The position numbers were made by a program, and so were the translations under genes. The notes below the pieces were generated by a model. That model searched no databases. It had not been told where the DNA came from and worked only from the letters and a program-made list of their open reading frames with translations. Of a stretch of DNA of 55,915 nt, positions 8,476 to 34,206 are shown piece by piece. Numbering within the stretch: the first letter of the stretch is position 1; every line of letters begins with the position of its first letter. The DNA is from Bacteroidia bacterium (lineage in GTDB: Bacteria; Bacteroidota; Bacteroidia; NS11-12g; UBA9320), in the NCBI GenBank assembly GCA_016779945.1, contig JADHMR010000005.1:1-55915 (forward strand), written 5' to 3'.

Positions 8476-10341
8476 ATGAAATCAGCCTTTGCTGTATTGT
8501 TAATACTTTGCCTTTATAGCCATTTAATGGCTCAGGTGATCCATGCTGATTTTTCAGAGGTGGATGACTCTAGTATGGTGATTGGGTTAGATTCTGTCGA
8601 TATTTTTTCTAAGAGTATCTCGCCCAATGAAGAGCTCATTGCTCAAGTTTTCTTAAAAACAAATCCGTTTCAGACCTATGCAGAATTACTTCAAAAACAG
8701 AGTGGCGTATTTATAAGAAGCGATGGCTATGGTGTCTTAAGTACACCATCCTTTAAGGGCCTAGGGACAATGCAAATGCCAATTATAATTAATGGGGTCA
8801 ATATGCAGAGTAGCATGAATGGAACTATGGATTTAAGTTTGATTGATGCAATTCATTTTAAGAATGCACAATTTGGATCCTCCGATTTGCAAACACTTGG
8901 TTCACCATCTTTGGGAGCAGGTGTTGCTATGGATTCAGATTTATCTAACGAAGGGGTAGATATTAATCTGAGTTATAGTAATCTTAGAGAACTTGGCTTA
9001 GGTGCCAAGTATTCATTTGTAAAAAAACGATTTAAGTATGCGTTAAGTACTTCATTTGTGAATTCTCAAAATAGGATAAGCCTTAAGCCCTACGAATTGG
9101 ACAGTATACTTACTAATACAGATATTCAAAGATTCAGTCTTATTCAAAATATGGCCTTTGATTTGACCTCCAAAAGCAGTATCCAATCCATGTTGTATTT
9201 TTTAAATGCAGATCGTGGAATCCCACCATCGATTGGTGAAAACAATCAAAATCGCCAGCAAGACAATAACATTGTTCATCTTTTCACCTACAGAAATAAG
9301 CTGAATTCAAATACAAGTTTGAAGATTTCAAATCAACTATCTCATGAAAAAATACATTTTTTTTTAAGTAAAAATAATATCCAAACAAATAACCAGGTAA
9401 GTAACATTAATACAAACATTAGTTTGATGCAAAAAATCTCGCATAAAACGGAACTTTTGATAAATGTTCAAAATCAACGAGCATATTATAGCTCTGATGC
9501 GTTAATAAATAGAGTTACTTGGAACCGAATACTTGCTTCATACGAATTGACTAAAAAATTTGACAAAGGAAGTGTGAAATTTGTTCAAGGTATCGTAAAC
9601 TGGAACAATCAATGGGCTATGAATGCTGGTCTTAATGGCAAAATATTATTTAATAAATTCTATTCATTAAAGGGTGAATTGCAAAAAGTATATCGCTTAC
9701 CGGTGCTTAATGAATTGTACTGGTATCAACCAAGTGAGGCCGTTGGAAATTTAGCCTTAAAACCTGAAGAAGGTTATAAATTAGATTTTGGACTAGCTTA
9801 TTCAGATAAAAAAGCTAGTATTCAAATTAATCCGCATATTGGTTTTTTTAAAAATTGGATTCAATGGATTGGATTACCAAATTCACCTCAAAATATCAGT
9901 CAAGTCTTAGTAAGTGGGGCAGTATTAAATGCTTCATATTCATACCCAATTAATGGTTATAAATTCATAGTACGTTCAAATATGCACTACGTTAGATCAG
10001 TTTATCGGTTTGATGATAAGAATACCCTTAGACAAAATAAACAACTCATCTTCACTCCAAGGTTTACCAGCAATCTAACTTTTAGTGTGATAGAAGAAAA
10101 CTTCGGGTTATTTGGAAATATTCAGTTTGTAGGTAAGAATTACGTAGCAACAGATAACTATTCTTATATTGATGCTTATTACCTAGTTGACATAGGAGGA
10201 TACTATAATCATTCAAAAATCAGATTGGGTTGTTCAATAACCAATATTATGAATACGCCATATTTTACAAAACCAAGAACGCCACTACCTGGAACAACAA
10301 TCAAACTAACATTAAATTATCAAATTAAAACCCAGCCATGA
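8476..10341 (+). CDS. btuB: TonB-dependent cobalamin receptor (BtuB-like)
   Basis: Signal peptide from ATG 8476. Plug (LLQKQSGVFIRSDGYGVLSTPSFKG, NGTMDLSLI), YRLPVLNELYW, GNLALKPEEG. First gene under the B12 riboswitch. Confidence 0.8.
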   Translation: MKSAFAVLLILCLYSHLMAQVIHADFSEVDDSSMVIGLDSVDIFSKSISPNEELIAQVFLKTNPFQTYAELLQKQSGVFIRSDGYGVLSTPSFKGLGTMQMPIIINGVNMQSSMNGTMDLSLIDAIHFKNAQFGSSDLQTLGSPSLGAGVAMDSDLSNEGVDINLSYSNLRELGLGAKYSFVKKRFKYALSTSFVNSQNRISLKPYELDSILTNTDIQRFSLIQNMAFDLTSKSSIQSMLYFLNADRGIPPSIGENNQNRQQDNNIVHLFTYRNKLNSNTSLKISNQLSHEKIHFFLSKNNIQTNNQVSNINTNISLMQKISHKTELLINVQNQRAYYSSDALINRVTWNRILASYELTKKFDKGSVKFVQGIVNWNNQWAMNAGLNGKILFNKFYSLKGELQKVYRLPVLNELYWYQPSEAVGNLALKPEEGYKLDFGLAYSDKKASIQINPHIGFFKNWIQWIGLPNSPQNISQVLVSGAVLNASYSYPINGYKFIVRSNMHYVRSVYRFDDKNTLRQNKQLIFTPRFTSNLTFSVIEENFGLFGNIQFVGKNYVATDNYSYIDAYYLVDIGGYYNHSKIRLGCSITNIMNTPYFTKPRTPLPGTTIKLTLNYQIKTQP

Positions 10342-12005
10342 AAAGAAAAATTATTCAATTATTAAGTATATTACTTTTTTTAAATAGCTATGCCCAATAT
10401 GATCACACAAGGGTATATTCCACATTTGATAATATACCGTTATCCAAGTCTGACACCTTTAATAATGGTGCTGATTTAAGCGGTGGTTTTGCTCATTTCG
10501 GAAGAAATTGGACAAATTCGTACATGCCTGATTGGGGCAGCTGGTCAGGTTGGGCTCTAAGTAATATGACTGATACATTAACTCCGGGATACCAAAACCA
10601 GTATAGTGCTATTCCAGGTCATGGTGTAAGCCATACCAACAATTATATGGTTAGTTACGGAAATACCTTTATCAAATTAGATTCGTCTACTGATATTTCA
10701 GGGGCTTATTTTACCAACAGTACCTATGTATATTTAGATCTCATGAATGGGGGTGATTTTAGCAAAAAATTTGGTGGCGAAAATGGAGACGATCCTGATT
10801 ATTTTAGCGTTAAATTTTATTCTTACCTAATGGGAGAATTGGTAGACTCTACAACGTTATATCTGGCAGATTTTAGGTTTTCAGATAACTCTGAGGACTA
10901 CATTTTAAACGATTGGACTTATGTAGATTTTAACAATGATGTTGACGTAGATATTAGAATAGATAGTATAGCTATCAAATATGAGAGCTCAGATACTGGA
11001 TCATTTGGTATCAATACACCCACTTATTTGTGTATGGATGATTTTAATGCCATTAGTACCGCAGAGGTAATGCCAAAAATGATACGATTTGATGAGGATA
11101 CATTTTATAATGGAAGCGACGGTGCCGGTGGGTTTAATGTTAGTCATTTGTTTTTTCCTAATAACTACAACAACACTTGGGGTAGTTGGTCGGGTTGGAG
11201 TGTTAGCTCTATGTATGATGACGTTACTCCTGGATATACTAATCAGTATTCCTCTGTAAGAAGAATCATGTCAACCATACCAGAATCTGACTGGTATTTT
11301 GAGTCCGTTCATTTCGTAAACAATGGTCAGAAAAATACAGTTCGTTCACCTTATTTTAATGATGCTGATGAAGGGATATTTGGACTAGTAAGACTACCTG
11401 TTCCTGTTCAGTTTCACATCACTAATGCTACTTATGCTGCCTTAGACATGAGAGATGGGAGTGCTTTTAGTAAAAAATTTGGTGGGGATAGTGGTGACGA
11501 ACCCGATTTTTTTAGGTTGCTTGTCAAGAGTGTGTCTGCTTCAAATGATATTCTCAATATTGATACCATTTACTTGGCGGATTTTCGTTTTGATGACAAC
11601 ACTCAGGATTATATCTTGGATGAATGGGAAATGGCTGAAATAGTGCCTTGTGATCGGGTAGATTTTGAGTTGCAATCATCAGATGTTGGACAATATGGAA
11701 TGAATACACCTGCCTATTTCTGCTTGTCATTGGCTCAGAGTTTAACCAATTCTGTTACCAATAAAACACTTCCTCAATTAAATGTTTACCCAAATCCTAC
11801 CCAAAATATTTTGAACATTTTAACAGATAAATCCATTCAACGAATTGAATTAATCTCAGCAGATGGTAGAATTGTTGCAAACACAAAAGATAAAATTGTA
11901 TCAAATAAATATTCATTTGATGTTTCTAGTTTAGTAACTGGTGTTTATTTTGCTAAGATTTATACATCCAATGGAACATCTATTTCAAAATTCATAAAAC
12001 AATGA
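10338..12005 (+). CDS. Tandem DUF4465 (BtuJ-like) protein with T9SS type A C-terminal domain
   Basis: Two repeats, each with WGSWSGW, TPGY.NQYS, SKKFGG..GD.PD.F, YLADFRF and G.NTP.Y. C-terminal VYPNPT...GVYFAKI...KFIKQ. Confidence 0.8.
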   Translation: MKRKIIQLLSILLFLNSYAQYDHTRVYSTFDNIPLSKSDTFNNGADLSGGFAHFGRNWTNSYMPDWGSWSGWALSNMTDTLTPGYQNQYSAIPGHGVSHTNNYMVSYGNTFIKLDSSTDISGAYFTNSTYVYLDLMNGGDFSKKFGGENGDDPDYFSVKFYSYLMGELVDSTTLYLADFRFSDNSEDYILNDWTYVDFNNDVDVDIRIDSIAIKYESSDTGSFGINTPTYLCMDDFNAISTAEVMPKMIRFDEDTFYNGSDGAGGFNVSHLFFPNNYNNTWGSWSGWSVSSMYDDVTPGYTNQYSSVRRIMSTIPESDWYFESVHFVNNGQKNTVRSPYFNDADEGIFGLVRLPVPVQFHITNATYAALDMRDGSAFSKKFGGDSGDEPDFFRLLVKSVSASNDILNIDTIYLADFRFDDNTQDYILDEWEMAEIVPCDRVDFELQSSDVGQYGMNTPAYFCLSLAQSLTNSVTNKTLPQLNVYPNPTQNILNILTDKSIQRIELISADGRIVANTKDKIVSNKYSFDVSSLVTGVYFAKIYTSNGTSISKFIKQ

Positions 12006-12943
12006 GACTAGGAGCTTTAATAATCATATTTTTTCAAATACTATCGTATGCTCAGTTCGATGGGCCAGGTGGAGAGGAGGGGAGTAAATCAATTTCAAAA
12101 GATAACTCCTCAATTATTGGCTGGGCTACAGGAGCTCAATTGTTCAGGGGACCTATGCAAATTAATGATACTGCCTTGGGGTTAGCTTCAGTGGGAAACA
12201 AAACTAGTGCTCTTGGTCCGTGTGATGGTGATGTTGTTAGTCTTGGAGATGGAGGTTCAATCATTCTCTCTTTTAGTCAACCTATTTTGAATAGGAAGGG
12301 ATATGATTTTGCTACTTTTGAAAATGGGTTTCAAATAGGGTTTTCTTATTATTTAGAACTTGCTCATGTAGAAGTAAGTAAAGATGGGATAGCATATAAA
12401 CGTTTTCCAAATCAAAGTTTAACAGATACTGATTTTCAAACCAATAATTTTAGTTATACAGACCCCTATAATCTAGAAAACTTAGCGGGCAAACATCAAG
12501 CACCCTATGGAACATTATTTGATATTGACGAATTGGGTTTTGATACCATAAATTATATCAGATTGATTGATGTGGTTGGGAGTGTGAACGATAGTTTTGG
12601 AACAAAAGACAGTAAAGGTCGAATGATAAATGATCCTTTTCCTAGTCCTTTTGAAAGTTGTGGTTTCGATTTAGATGCCGTAGCAATTGTAAATGGTGAG
12701 TTGTTAAATATCGAAAAACAAGTACTGCAGGGAATAAACGTTTACCCAACACTAGTAGATCGAAATATACCAATTCGTATTGATGCTCCAGCTCTTTCTG
12801 ATATTTCAATAATAGATTTAACTGGTAGAAAAGTAAACTTTTTACGCAACCAAAATGAGATTTATATTTCCTCTATAGGTACGTATTTCGTAAATATTTC
12901 TTATCAAGGTAAATCATACACACAAAAGGTTTGCGTAAGATAG
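12002..12943 (+). CDS. Secreted cell-surface protein (BtuH-like domain) with degenerate T9SS CTD
   Basis: Sec signal. VVSLGDGGSIILSF..PI.N..GYDFATFENGF, ELAHVEVS.DG, YIRLIDV, GFDLDAV. C-terminal VYPT..IIDLTGR..GTYFVNI. Confidence 0.6.
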   Translation: MRLGALIIIFFQILSYAQFDGPGGEEGSKSISKDNSSIIGWATGAQLFRGPMQINDTALGLASVGNKTSALGPCDGDVVSLGDGGSIILSFSQPILNRKGYDFATFENGFQIGFSYYLELAHVEVSKDGIAYKRFPNQSLTDTDFQTNNFSYTDPYNLENLAGKHQAPYGTLFDIDELGFDTINYIRLIDVVGSVNDSFGTKDSKGRMINDPFPSPFESCGFDLDAVAIVNGELLNIEKQVLQGINVYPTLVDRNIPIRIDAPALSDISIIDLTGRKVNFLRNQNEIYISSIGTYFVNISYQGKSYTQKVCVR

Positions 12944-30692: not shown

Positions 30693-32027
30693 TCACTGAA
30701 CATAGTTTTGTGCGGCACTAATTCTGCTAACGTTATGATTTCTTAATGTTTGAACAGCTGAATTAAACTGTCCATTAACATATGAATATCCGTTAACTTC
30801 ATTAGTTGCAGAAACATTCAAAAGGGATTCTTGATTGTCATAAATAGTTGTCATTCTACTATTTTCAAAAGAAGTTTCAATAAATGATTTAACGTAGCTT
30901 TTATAAATATTTTCGTACTCATTATCGGCAATAATATAGCTTATTAATGGCCAATCGTCTCCAACTTCGTTCATTTCAAAAGAGAGTGATCCCCCGCGTT
31001 TACCATTTTGAAAAGCTTCATTATTATCCCATGTTATCCATTTTATTAAATCGTCATTTGGATCGTGATAGAGGTAATAATTATGAGTCATTCTGCCATA
31101 GGTATCCCAATTCTGAAGTGTATTGTTTGCAGCGAGATATTTTAAAAATCCATCAACATCAAATACATTTTCTAAGTTTTTTTTCCATGCAGTAGGGTCA
31201 GTGTTTCGAGTGTCAGCGTGGAGCAAATCAAACATCTCTTTAATATCACTTCTGTTATTGATTTCTTCATTGGTTTTTAGTTCGAAGTCGTCTAGTGTAA
31301 AACCGTTCGTTGAAAATCTTGCACCATCTCCATCAGGTTTGTAACAATTTCCACTTTTAGATCCGAACCAGTTTTTTAGAAAAGTATCAAAAACAATCTC
31401 AGTCATGGTATAGACTCCATAATATTTATACGTTCCTGTGCCTTCATCAATATATATTTCATAAAAGGATGTCCTAACAGCGGGAACTCCGAAATTTCTG
31501 AATAGATCTGCAGCAGATTTTTCACGCATTATTGCAGGGTCGTTGTAATTACTGCTCAAAGACAGTTCTTTAAAACCATAAAAACGTTGATCTGAAATTT
31601 CGGGGAATTCATACTCCCACTTATCAAAGTCTAGCCTAAGAGGTAGTTTATTACTATTAGCTCTCAGCGATGAATTACCCTTGTATCTTATGCCAACATG
31701 TGCCCAAGTCATGTTATTAAAATTTACTTCACAATGAAAGTAATCCGGATTTTCAGTTGGGAAACCGCCTGGGCCTCCACCGCCTCTTTTTTGTGATAGA
31801 TCTCTTTGCATATCTTGCCACTCTTGAGTTGTAAATATGATATTAAGTCTATTTACCTTTTCTTGATTAAATACGACATCATAATCAGCTGGGAATCCGT
31901 TAGAATGACTAGCAGTCCCTTGTCTATTATCACCGTCTTGATTGGGTACAAAGATTTCTTTTTTACATGAAAACAAAACAAGAGTCAATAATGAAATACT
32001 TCCAATTTTTAACTTCCAATTTTTCAT
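30693..32027 (-). CDS. CotH-family atypical kinase, lipoprotein
   Basis: Lipobox LFSC. GIRYKGNSS, KLPLRLDF, YYGVYTMTE, WDTYGRMTHNYYLY, WDNNEAF. Confidence 0.85.
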   Translation of the reverse strand: MKNWKLKIGSISLLTLVLFSCKKEIFVPNQDGDNRQGTASHSNGFPADYDVVFNQEKVNRLNIIFTTQEWQDMQRDLSQKRGGGGPGGFPTENPDYFHCEVNFNNMTWAHVGIRYKGNSSLRANSNKLPLRLDFDKWEYEFPEISDQRFYGFKELSLSSNYNDPAIMREKSAADLFRNFGVPAVRTSFYEIYIDEGTGTYKYYGVYTMTEIVFDTFLKNWFGSKSGNCYKPDGDGARFSTNGFTLDDFELKTNEEINNRSDIKEMFDLLHADTRNTDPTAWKKNLENVFDVDGFLKYLAANNTLQNWDTYGRMTHNYYLYHDPNDDLIKWITWDNNEAFQNGKRGGSLSFEMNEVGDDWPLISYIIADNEYENIYKSYVKSFIETSFENSRMTTIYDNQESLLNVSATNEVNGYSYVNGQFNSAVQTLRNHNVSRISAAQNYVQ

Positions 32028-32034
32028 TTTAATG

Positions 32035-32727
32035 TTATTTAATGGTGAATTTATAGTTTATACCCATGATGTTTGTCCTTTTGGGGTAATCTCCAAAGAG
32101 TTCATTTTCAGTTCTTACGAAAGCACCTATGCTTCCTTTTTTCAATTTATAGTCCGAACCCAGCGTATAGCGAATTTTAAATATACCCTCGTTTACCGTA
32201 ATCCCATTGAATAGTTCAGCAGAAAATGTGGGGTCTATTTTCCAATCTCTAATATTGTAAGTAGATGCTACTTTGAATCGAACGGTTTTTATAATCTCAT
32301 CTGAAGTTCTTTCTAGTTCATCTTTATTTTGATATCTAATTCGATATTTCATTGCAAAGCGATCAATGGAATGTCTGAATTCGATGTCTCCATGCCATCT
32401 AAGGTGTTTTTCGTTACCTTGAATTTTACCTTCATTATCGTTCTCGATTATTAATCTAGAGGCAAAGCCGATACTCAAAAAGTCAGCTAGTTTGTATTTT
32501 AGCCCTAGTTGAGTAAAATTTACATCTAATGTGCTTGTATTATCTTTTAATCTGAGTTGTTGTGATAGGCTTAACCTTAACTTTTTTGTAGGTTTATATC
32601 GAAGATCAATAGATGTCCAAGTTTCAAAATCTTGTATCGTGTAATAGGTTCCGTCTTGGGCTTGAGAAACCATTGGTAGAAAAATTAATAAGCAGACGAC
32701 CAAACTTATATTTAATAATTTATTCAT
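32035..32727 (-). CDS. DUF2490 outer-membrane beta-barrel protein
   Basis: Sec signal (SQA-Q). DFETW, Q.RL, RIRYQ, amphipathic strands and a C-terminal INYKF. Confidence 0.7.
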   Translation of the reverse strand: MNKLLNISLVVCLLIFLPMVSQAQDGTYYTIQDFETWTSIDLRYKPTKKLRLSLSQQLRLKDNTSTLDVNFTQLGLKYKLADFLSIGFASRLIIENDNEGKIQGNEKHLRWHGDIEFRHSIDRFAMKYRIRYQNKDELERTSDEIIKTVRFKVASTYNIRDWKIDPTFSAELFNGITVNEGIFKIRYTLGSDYKLKKGSIGAFVRTENELFGDYPKRTNIMGINYKFTIK

Positions 32728-33328
32728 GAGGTTTCAAATATTTAATAGTGATTAAAGTGGTATCTCTTAAGAAATCAATTGACCCAATTTCAACATCTAC
32801 TACGGTAAGACCTGTTCTCTCTTCAAGGTCTTGTATTAGTATGTCTCTCATTTCAGGTTTGATATTTTCAATTTTTTCGTAAGTGATTTTTTTACTTAGC
32901 GTATTTTCTCTGAACAATAACCGCTCAATGAGGTATATTGTAATAACAACAATGATGTTTGCACCCACAATTTCTGCATAGCTCATCTTTTGATTAGCTA
33001 ATGAGTTTATGACTGATATACCAATAATTATAAATAGGTAAGTCATTTCTTTGATAGGTATAGGATTGGTCCGGTAGCGTATAATTCCAAAAATCGCAAA
33101 CAATCCTAAAGCCATACCAATATCTAATTCATATTTTTTAAGTGTAAAGCAAAGAAAGAATACAATTATACCTATCATATAATAGGTAAATAGATAATCT
33201 CTATTTTTTACAGTAGAATAGTATAACCATTGAATAATGATTATTAAAAAGGAGATGTTGAGTAAAAATCGAAACATCATTTTATAGAAGTCATCATCAA
33301 ATAGGGGTATGCTCAAAAACTCACTCAT
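32720..33328 (-). CDS. DUF4956 inner-membrane protein
   Basis: Hydrophobic helices with ALGLFAIFGIIRYRTNPIPIKEMTYLF, plus a soluble C-terminal domain (DLEERTGL). Confidence 0.85.
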   Translation of the reverse strand: MSEFLSIPLFDDDFYKMMFRFLLNISFLIIIIQWLYYSTVKNRDYLFTYYMIGIIVFFLCFTLKKYELDIGMALGLFAIFGIIRYRTNPIPIKEMTYLFIIIGISVINSLANQKMSYAEIVGANIIVVITIYLIERLLFRENTLSKKITYEKIENIKPEMRDILIQDLEERTGLTVVDVEIGSIDFLRDTTLITIKYLKPHE

Positions 33329-34059
33329 AGGTTATTTATTTTACTGATTTTATTGAATTTACTTTTAAATATATTTTGCTTTAAGGATGCATCACTTTTT
33401 GCCATACCCATGCAATATTTACTTAATCTCATTGGGTGAATACCCATTGAACTTAACGATTGATATACTGGTGAATGCCTATTTATACGTTCATGTTTTA
33501 ATTCAAGAATAACAAGATTTTGGTAGAAAGGGGCACCATTAAACGATAGATTTGAGTCAATAGTTACTCGTTCAGTTAAATGCTTATTAACAAGAGTGAA
33601 TCGATTGAATTGATTGTCTATTGATTTTTCAAGAGTATAATTTTCACCAATTGTCTTATGAATAAAGGATAGTGAATTCATGTCTAATTTTTCATTGAAT
33701 GAAGTAATTGGTATCCTTTTTTTTGAGGTATTTCCGTTATTAGATTTCTTTTTCACTTCTAAGAAAAATAAATTGGATTCTACATAATTGCGAATTCTGA
33801 CTTTCACTCTTTTTGCTTTGCCATTATGATGCATTAGGTATAGATGAGCATCAGGTGTATCAAAGTAATTAGACTTGTAGGTCATCATACGATTTTGACC
33901 GATTTTTAAAACCTTATACTGTTCTTTAATATATTCTAATAGGAGAGGAACTAAGCTAACGTGAAAAACAAATTTTGTATCAACTCTTTTCATCAGTGAT
34001 ACAGCTTCCATTTCATTAAGAGATATGGATTCGAATTTATCTAAGTTATATGAAATCAA
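33325..34059 (-). CDS. VTC-domain (CYTH/TTM fold) polyphosphate polymerase domain protein
   Basis: LMKRVDTKF, YFDT, KVRIRNY, FLEVKKK, ERVTID, ILELK, SKYC. TTG start. Confidence 0.85.
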   Translation of the reverse strand: MISYNLDKFESISLNEMEAVSLMKRVDTKFVFHVSLVPLLLEYIKEQYKVLKIGQNRMMTYKSNYFDTPDAHLYLMHHNGKAKRVKVRIRNYVESNLFFLEVKKKSNNGNTSKKRIPITSFNEKLDMNSLSFIHKTIGENYTLEKSIDNQFNRFTLVNKHLTERVTIDSNLSFNGAPFYQNLVILELKHERINRHSPVYQSLSSMGIHPMRLSKYCMGMAKSDASLKQNIFKSKFNKISKINNL

Positions 34060-34096
34060 ATGTATATGGTAAAGATTTATAATTCAATTACATTAC

Positions 34097-34141
34097 TTTG
34101 ATTTTTAAGTTACGTTAATTGAAAGTTTATTTTACGTTAAT
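34097..34141 (-). promoter_or_regulatory. 11-bp periodic direct repeats (Pho-box/OmpR-family operator-like) upstream of the VTC operon
   Basis: Minus strand reads TTAACGTAAAA|TAAACTTTCAA|TTAACGTAACT|TAAAAATCAAA. The exact 10-mer TTACGTTAAT occurs at 34110 and 34132, 22 bp apart. Confidence 0.5.
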
Positions 34142-34206
34142 AAATTACAAATAAAAGCATTTAAATATAACTTATACGTCATGGATGAGCTAATGCAAGC
34201 AAAAAA

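Follow-up and report, generated by a model that had tools for sequence, protein, structure and literature searches.

The stretch of DNA analysed here, hereafter the window, comprises 55,915 nucleotides of a Bacteroidia bacterium (contig JADHMR010000005.1, assembly GCA_016779945.1) and contains a compact cassette of four genes encoding, in the order of transcription, a VTC-domain protein, a membrane protein of the DUF4956 family, a DUF2490 β-barrel and a CotH-family kinase. An earlier account made from the letters alone (the sequence-only reading) had described these genes as co-oriented and tightly coupled, and the list of open reading frames (ORFs) agrees with it exactly: VTC and DUF4956 overlap by 4 bp, the DUF4956 start lying over the VTC stop, DUF4956 and DUF2490 overlap by 8 bp, and a gap of 7 bp separates DUF2490 from CotH. 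Its four domain calls are also borne out, each protein scoring above the curated Pfam cut-off (97.2 bits against a cut-off of 23 for VTC, 176.1 bits for DUF4956, 67.1 bits for DUF2490, and 203.8 bits over residues 113–432 for CotH); an NCBIfam scan of the four proteins matched no model. Prediction further backs the idea of one component per envelope compartment, with neither a signal peptide nor a transmembrane segment in the VTC protein, membrane helices in DUF4956, a barrel fold for DUF2490 and a lipobox-like end to the CotH signal. The base composition of the cassette is that of its surroundings.

Table 1 Features of the four-gene cassette and its upstream region, in window coordinates.
Feature	Position	Strand	Size	Assignment
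VTC-domain protein	33325..34059	-	244 aa	Pfam VTC 1.4e-27; predicted cytoplasmic triphosphate-tunnel enzyme of the Vtc4 polyphosphate-polymerase type
DUF4956 membrane protein	32720..33328	-	202 aa	Pfam DUF4956 6.5e-52; partner of VTC, candidate translocase
DUF2490 outer-membrane β-barrel with signal peptide	32035..32727	-	230 aa	Pfam DUF2490 2.1e-18
CotH-family kinase, probable lipoprotein	30693..32027	-	444 aa	Pfam CotH 6.4e-60
AT-rich upstream intergenic region	34060..34206	-	147 bp	Computed gap; likely promoter and 5' leader

The four families were surveyed in 251 Bacteroidota genomes sampled evenly across the phylum, and in the 80 loci whose DUF4956 is nearest to that of the window among contigs representing one genome per species. 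VTC is found in 38 of the 251 genomes, DUF4956 in 77 and CotH in 101, and every genome with VTC also holds DUF4956 (38/38). At 39 of 41 VTC loci (the window and 40 full-length loci that were fetched; a 42nd match, a fragment of 54 positions, was left out) the neighbouring gene on the same strand is DUF4956, and at the other two it lies within 3.5 kb. Among the 80 nearest loci, whose carriers include Bacteroidia and Flavobacteriaceae, VTC stands directly upstream of DUF4956 in 69, and the exact order VTC, DUF4956, DUF2490, CotH is seen again in 11, all from other species and including Flavivirga jejuensis and Mariniflexile fucanivorans. Co-occurrence across genomes, which the sequence-only reading had put forward as a check on its proposal, is thus found both for the pair and for the full order, and the cassette is real and conserved.

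Among 14 control genomes, VTC and DUF4956 matched the same three, namely those of Bacteroides thetaiotaomicron, C. glutamicum and M. acetivorans. Maximum-likelihood trees of the two families share a deep split (support 100/99 and 100) and have matching subclades; since the trees mirror each other, we conclude that VTC and DUF4956 are inherited as a unit. A search of 1.84 billion representatives returned 1342 DUF4956 proteins at E ≤1e-3, and the longer ORFs include one joining VTC to DUF4956 (483 residues, a singleton), one running from DUF4956 through a lipobox into CotH (671 residues, a singleton), and two in which DUF4956 is followed by a signal peptide and DUF2490, one of them backed by a 36-member cluster from many contigs. 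The three singleton fusions may be frame errors. The clustered ORF (P0037, 460 residues, on contigs from NCBI, ENA and Logan), which passes from DUF4956 through an internal signal peptide into DUF2490, may represent either a fusion that is later cleaved or internal initiation.

A search of the PDB with the single VTC sequence returned only a chance match. A profile built from 38 Bacteroidota relatives matches the catalytic domain of yeast Vtc4 (3g3q) at 3.4e-26, with the inactive Vtc2 and Vtc3 scoring much lower. The accessible text of a cryo-EM preprint on the yeast VTC complex (10.1101/2023.01.27.525886) names K200, R264, R266, K281, R361, K458, S457 and Y359 as triphosphate ligands of Vtc4 and E426 as its Mn ligand, and gives Ile or Leu at the K458 position of inactive Vtc2 and Vtc3. 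In our alignment, window residues K29, R88, R90, K103, R153, E186, S213 and K214 correspond to Vtc4 K200, R264, R266, K281, R361, E426, S457 and K458, so that eight of the nine ligands are retained. The lysine that tells active Vtc4 from Vtc2 and Vtc3 (K214) is invariant in all 38 sequences, as are K29, R88, R90, K103 and R153; E186 is nearly invariant, and S213 is absent from the listed conserved columns of this alignment. In the first-strand motif, the window subfamily has D27 whereas the other VTC subfamily has Glu. In the 244-residue protein Pfam finds the VTC domain alone, with no SPX domain and no transmembrane domain of the DUF202 type, and a search for longer VTC homologues found no fusion, which is weak evidence. 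The protein carries most, not all, of the features by which a Vtc4-type polymerase would be recognised, and polymerase activity is predicted for it on this basis.

The DUF4956 model (predicted local distance difference test, pLDDT, 91.9) contains helices at residues 12–40, 43–65, 70–84, 92–109 and 117–138, followed by a C-terminal α/β domain with β-α-β-β order at residues 143–198. The most conserved stretch of the protein is GLFAIFGIIRYRT, and the family motif GLFAIFxIxRYRT is present in the window protein, with the local form GIIRYRT; across 96 sequences R86 is invariant and R84 nearly so. A search of the ESM Atlas with the model retrieved DUF4956 itself only, and Foldseek gave weak ACT-type rows for the C-terminal domain. 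Three proteins of the other DUF4956 subfamily match MgtC (PF02308) at 24.3, 18.8 and 13.4 bits against a cut-off of 31.4, and the window protein has no MgtC row in Pfam.

The genes that accompany the pair differ between lineages. The 41 VTC loci form two classes that match both deep clades of the VTC and DUF4956 trees. Class I comprises 14 loci, the window among them, with a DUF2490 barrel adjoining the pair in nine and an adaptor in none. Class II comprises 27 loci, all of them lacking a DUF2490 barrel; in 24, a gene for a 330–390-residue protein immediately precedes VTC or follows DUF4956. Pfam detects the 330–390-residue proteins weakly or not at all; their two groups are homologous to each other (hhalign 99.1%, E 7e-19), and one group matches ZneB, AcrA, EmrA and MacA in the PDB at ~2e-6, which identifies them, at the level of sequence profiles, as HlyD-type periplasmic adaptors. 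One class II locus (L031) has the order CotH, DUF4956, adaptor, a Pfam-confirmed OEP protein of the TolC-like kind, VTC. Another (L021; G149:C15:1-18679, genes 8909-12576) has the layout of the window with a different barrel, its VTC and DUF4956 being followed by a 334-residue barrel and a 384-residue CotH; this barrel has a marginal match to Porin_O_P, the phosphate-selective porins (22 bits against 20.9), and no match in a PDB search. Seven of the 41 loci have none of these envelope partners. Two genomes hold two or three class II VTC-DUF4956 pairs each, with differing accessory genes (G057: L009, L022, L037; G165: L008, L031).

A similar arrangement is found where VTC is missing. In a hand-picked, non-random set of 14 VTC-less DUF4956 loci, taken from 13 of the 39 VTC-less genomes, nine encode DUF4956, an adaptor and a putative outer-membrane factor in that order, and their operons contain no further inner-membrane transporter (L050 and L053–L060; genomes G199, G027, G028, G240, G152, G171, G207, G068 and G188). 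The putative factor has 404–427 residues and a weak OEP likeness (hhalign 56%, E 1e-4), and a PDB profile search with it gave no match. To our knowledge, periplasmic adaptors occur only as partners of inner-membrane exporters, which suggests that DUF4956 moves something across the envelope. The dependence of the third partner on the clade speaks independently for a function spanning the envelope, and the trans-envelope idea of the sequence-only reading gains from it, the sister clade having an HlyD-type adaptor, and sometimes a TolC-like protein, in the slot of DUF2490. By analogy, the DUF2490 barrel would fill the adaptor's equivalent place in the window class. Custom hidden Markov models (HMMs) for adaptors and outer-membrane factors found neither among the window ORFs between 20 and 45 kb. 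Another VTC-less locus encodes DUF4956, DUF2490 and a convergent CotH. Two further VTC-less loci (L047, G111:C15; L049, G199:C18) carry a class I DUF4956 followed by an unassigned 341–356-residue protein and by a calcineurin-like or purple-acid phosphatase, and in one family DUF4956 is present in 33 of 41 genomes, CotH likewise in 33, and VTC in only 2.

The model of the window DUF2490 (pLDDT 81.8) shows an N-terminal signal-like helix and 11 listed β-strands, and Foldseek matched it to outer-membrane barrels only, the best being the 12-stranded BrkA β domain at a TM-score of 0.49. R110, R150, R186 and E171 are shared by all ten operon-linked members compared, and R59, Y78 and R91 by nearly all. 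Within the strands, R59, R91, R110, R150, R186 and E171 are flanked by hydrophobic residues; because these neighbours lie on either side, the charged residues presumably face the lumen, a pattern that fits a path for anions. The accessible part of TCDB entry 1.B.81 lists DUF2490 as a putative porin of unknown function. At one locus a Cthe_2159-type β-helix carbohydrate-binding protein is encoded directly after DUF2490 (L032:11440-13053), and the same type is also encoded at L010 and L033. In many class I loci, among them L033:8526-8954, L046:8487-8912, L092, L119 and L137, an ORF of ~130–180 residues without a solid Pfam match lies directly upstream of VTC; the window lacks a counterpart.

The window CotH matches CotH of B. 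cereus (5jd9) at 3.4e-17 over ~250 aligned residues, and its D308 (NWD) and D334 (TWD) align with B. cereus D224 and D247. The accessible literature reports that B. subtilis CotH is inactivated by D228Q and D251A; we take these to be the same two positions, a 4-residue offset between the B. cereus and B. subtilis numberings being inferred from the equal 23-residue spacing, and both catalytic aspartates are kept in the window protein. Its N-terminus, MKNWKLKIGSISLLTLVLFSC, ends in LFSC, a lipobox-like motif read from the sequence, which makes CotH a probable lipoprotein. In the 11 loci of identical gene order, the CotH proteins have 443–487 residues, are 42–70% identical to that of the window, and all (11/11) have a hydrophobic N-terminus ending in Cys. 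CotH is common and multi-copy in Bacteroidota, with up to 9 matches per genome; it is held by 74 of the 77 DUF4956 genomes against 27 of the 174 without DUF4956, across at least 19 families. A second CotH of the window organism (C87:14160-18089; 1156 residues) combines CHB_HEX_C/Fn3_assoc, CotH and two Lamin-tail domains with a type IX sorting tail, which fits action of CotH at the surface.

The sequence-only reading knew of no experimental characterisation of this module, a statement that proves too strong. The accessible text of Whitfield et al. (10.1101/768473) counts among the accessory genes of streptococcal and clostridial pel loci cotH, a "poly-phosphate polymerase", DUF4956 and DUF4832, with a diguanylate cyclase/phosphodiesterase gene in the place of DUF4832 in bifidobacteria. 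The CotH/VTC/DUF4956 trio is therefore already known beside Gram-positive pel loci, without a mechanism, and knock-outs have been made in Streptococcus intermedius (preprint, and mBio 2025), where the genes for CotH, the VTC-like protein and DUF4956 (SIR_1594, SIR_1593 and SIR_1592, respectively) were deleted. According to the available portions of that study, loss of DUF4956 or of CotH changed the amount of Pel and aggregation; none of the four deletion mutants ceased to aggregate, and a decrease was reported for the DUF4956 and CotH mutants only. The mBio version, as far as its accessible text goes, states that synteny of the trio is found only at pel loci. Contrary to this, the Bacteroidota cassettes described here are free of pel genes. 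A B. thetaiotaomicron transcriptome table, in the part available, lists BT3498-99 as DUF4956 and DUF2490, and our full-text literature searches returned notes on pel loci only, and no paper in which a bacterial VTC protein or DUF4956 had been assayed.

We propose that the cassette encodes a bacterial synthase-dependent polyphosphate (polyP) system, built around an invariant VTC-DUF4956 pair, with clade-specific envelope parts and a dependent extracytoplasmic CotH, a reading between which and all others our confidence is evenly divided. Its support comes directly from the domain identities, the conservation of the active site, the invariant pairing, the clade-specific partners and the genome-level link to CotH. 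From these we infer the remaining steps: that VTC makes polyP, that the chain crosses the inner membrane and then DUF2490, and that CotH may make use of it. The cytoplasmic VTC protein would act as a Vtc4-type tunnel enzyme that polymerises the γ-phosphate of ATP into polyP. DUF4956, translationally coupled to VTC and resembling MgtC, would be an inner-membrane protein with conserved arginines and an α/β domain on the cytoplasmic side; most probably it forms oligomers through which the growing anionic chain leaves the cytoplasm. In the lineage of the window, the arginine-lined DUF2490 barrel would serve as exit or anchor in the outer membrane, a role that an HlyD-type adaptor, with or without a TolC-like protein, would take in the sister lineage. 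The CotH lipoprotein would work outside the cytoplasm and depend functionally on the VTC-DUF4956 system.

A more specific idea, that the extruded polyP is the energy and phosphoryl source for CotH kinases outside the cytoplasm, we consider distinctly unlikely; if true, surface proteins or glycans would be phosphorylated or polyphosphorylated at the expense of polyP in a place where ATP is unavailable, and the cassette is in any case a lead on how a phosphoryl donor is supplied to secreted CotH kinases. We know of no defined route of polyP export in bacteria. Some bacteria are reported, in the accessible literature, to secrete polyP that acts on host cells, and on the same unlikely reading the VTC-DUF4956 machine would also be the missing route that places bacterial polyP on the surface or in the medium. 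The question is directly testable because the cassette is compact, its active site is of the Vtc4 type, its membrane partner is obligate and its envelope parts are clade-specific, and cultured carriers are available in Flavivirga jejuensis, Mariniflexile fucanivorans and Bacteroides thetaiotaomicron.

Several observations weigh against this proposal, foremost those on DUF4956. A Foldseek search with its model gave nothing at E ≤1e-3, VIA-align gave generic helical bundles only (Z ≤8.2), and a PDB profile search returned nothing below E 0.94 and no match to Vtc1, Vtc3 or Vtc4. MgtC, whose sub-threshold match is the sole outside signal for the family, is known as a regulator, not a channel. Fold, sequence-profile and Atlas searches thus gave no solved relative, and no homology of DUF4956 to the yeast VTC channel could be detected. 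The sequence-only reading had seen in the pair a split, VTC-like bacterial synthase and translocase: the unity of VTC and DUF4956 stands (all 38 genomes, 39 of 41 loci adjacent, mirrored trees), but DUF4956 shows no recognisable likeness to the yeast channel, with no sequence or fold match to the transmembrane domains of Vtc1, Vtc3 or Vtc4, and its derivation as a split-off of that channel is not supported. Nor does DUF4956 strictly need VTC, because 39 of the 77 DUF4956 genomes lack VTC and 11 of the 80 nearest loci have no adjacent or detectable VTC. As to CotH, which the same reading had made part of the module, the genome-level link is strong but adjacency is the minority case, CotH lying within three genes of the pair in only 10 of the 41 sample loci and 21 of the 80 nearest loci.

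Other points bear on single components of the same proposal. The window VTC has F151 at the position of Vtc4 Y359, in place of the tyrosine expected of a Vtc4-type polymerase, and the yeast literature, in its accessible part, reports that Y359F reduces polyP content. A 2026 preprint, as far as its text is available, describes buried, solvent-inaccessible charge networks in 238 of 2,789 DUF2490 models, which may fit a plugged barrel better than an open pore. In S. intermedius, the accessible text reports intact aggregation in both media on deletion of the VTC-like SIR_1593. The counts in the 80 nearest loci were made with custom HMMs at E ≤1e-5 and not with Pfam, the CotH model being built from eight Pfam-verified domains; the sampled genomes are related to each other, so all these counts overstate independence, and we give no P value. 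Low-depth contigs from 4 RNA libraries of 3 studies cover parts of all four genes, one of them spanning the VTC/DUF4956 junction and another covering 34005–34155; these are compatible with expression and are weak evidence, no proof, as the libraries may hold DNA and the uncovered parts are uninformative.

The main rival explanation holds that polyP stays in the cytoplasm. On this account DUF4956, an MgtC-like protein with an ACT-like domain, would only tether VTC or regulate it according to phosphate, Mg2+ or energy status, with DUF2490 and CotH co-regulated in separate roles; we regard it as possible, on balance unlikely. The sub-threshold MgtC matches in the other DUF4956 subfamily span nearly the whole profile (4.1e-5), which together with the weak ACT-type rows for the C-terminal domain is in line with it, and the MgtC match agrees with the reading of DUF4956 as "MgtC TM plus ACT" (TM, transmembrane) in the available text of the mBio 2025 paper. 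The preprint version of the same study, in its accessible part, suggests that polyP may remain cytoplasmic. The genome of the window organism has no PPK1 match, so a cytoplasmic source of polyP would be useful to it. This explanation leaves unaccounted for, however, the adaptor in 24 of 27 class II loci and the outer-membrane barrel in 9 of 14 class I loci, the DUF4956-adaptor-factor triads that have no other inner-membrane transporter, and the read-through of DUF4956 into DUF2490 in the 36-member cluster.

Two further explanations alter the chemistry assigned to VTC. It is improbable, in our view, that the tunnel binds a nucleoside triphosphate or a short tri- or tetraphosphate which DUF4956 passes outward as an ATP-like donor for CotH. 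CotH is present in 74 of 77 DUF4956 genomes, including those without VTC, the phenylalanine at the Y359 position may mean a chemistry different from that of Vtc4, and Bacillus CotH is ATP-dependent according to the accessible literature, all of which would suit such a donor; all basic tunnel residues and the Vtc4-specific lysine are kept, however, and VTC-less DUF4956 systems would be without the proposed binding module. Nor do we know of any triphosphate tunnel metalloenzyme (TTM) that is a subunit of a nucleotide transporter. Slightly more improbable still is a VTC protein that is a triphosphatase or another tunnel metalloenzyme, in a module that senses or detoxifies tri- or polyphosphate at the membrane: the TTM superfamily consists mostly of hydrolases, and D27, where the other VTC subfamily has Glu, and F151 would both be in keeping with this, but the Pfam assignment is specific to the VTC family, Vtc4 ranks first among the PDB matches ahead of the inactive Vtc2/3, and all 38 sequences carry the Vtc4-type lysine at the discriminating position. 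That four unrelated genes merely stand together by chance is hardly credible, since, for all that the CotH and DUF2490 partners vary among loci, it is contradicted by the locus counts (39 of 41 VTC loci with adjacent DUF4956, 11 of the 80 nearest loci with the full order in other species), by the overlapping reading frames and by the existence of fused ORFs.

The assembly of the window organism comprises 2.24 Mb in 144 contigs and is 91% complete. PPK1 (PF02503) has no match in it, and it holds two PPK2 genes and one Ppx-GppA gene (C21:33685-35266, C28:5198-5869), one PPK2 adjoining Ppx-GppA; given this inventory, VTC may be the main polyP source of its host. Upstream of the cassette, on the same strand and across the intergenic region, lies an HgmA_N-like gene, and downstream, 60 bp away, a convergent radical-SAM gene; both flanking genes are unrelated to the cassette. 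A scan for sigma-70 promoters and terminators performed no better than on shuffled sequence, the consensus used not covering Bacteroidota promoters. The window stretch was detected in marine and seawater metagenomes of 12 studies.

Compared with known systems, the window CotH shares its Pfam family, an alignment of ~250 residues and both catalytic aspartates with the Bacillus CotH kinase. It differs at its N-terminus, where a lipoprotein-like signal is added together with a 90-residue region that contains a Gly-rich linker. Spore coats are absent from the phylum Bacteroidota, and the Bacillus substrates CotB and CotG are not expected in the window organism. The accessory genes of the S. intermedius pel locus comprise the same three families, likewise contiguous, with a CotH predicted to be secreted in an organism that does not sporulate; the window genes, in contrast, stand alone, with no adjoining pel genes found in the window, add an outer-membrane barrel and encode a CotH that is a probable lipoprotein without an FN3 domain. 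Tripartite exporters, made up of an inner-membrane component, an HlyD/AcrA-type adaptor and a TolC-type outer-membrane factor, resemble the sister-clade loci, in which the pair, or DUF4956 alone, lies in operons with an adaptor and, in some, a TolC-like protein, whereas the window has neither an adaptor nor a TolC-like gene and a small DUF2490 barrel instead. With synthase-dependent secretion, as of cellulose and Pel, the cassette would share the principle that a polymerase drives the export of its own product, the polymer here being inorganic.

The closest parallel is the yeast VTC complex (Vtc4/Vtc3/Vtc1), whose tunnel domain belongs to the same Pfam family and shares triphosphate and Mn ligands with the window protein, whose enzyme is likewise obligately paired with a small multi-helix membrane protein bearing conserved basic residues, and with which the cassette would share the logic that polymerisation feeds the chain into a pore. 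Unlike the yeast complex, the cassette has no SPX domain and no DUF202-type transmembrane domain in the same chain; its membrane partner is a separate protein of another, MgtC-like family (DUF4956), its target would be the periplasm or surface and not the vacuole, and it adds outer-membrane or periplasmic parts and a CotH kinase. What appears to be new, judged from sequence, is the joining of Vtc4 chemistry to a non-homologous membrane partner and to bacterial envelope parts, which would constitute a second, non-homologous way to couple polyP synthesis with membrane transit.

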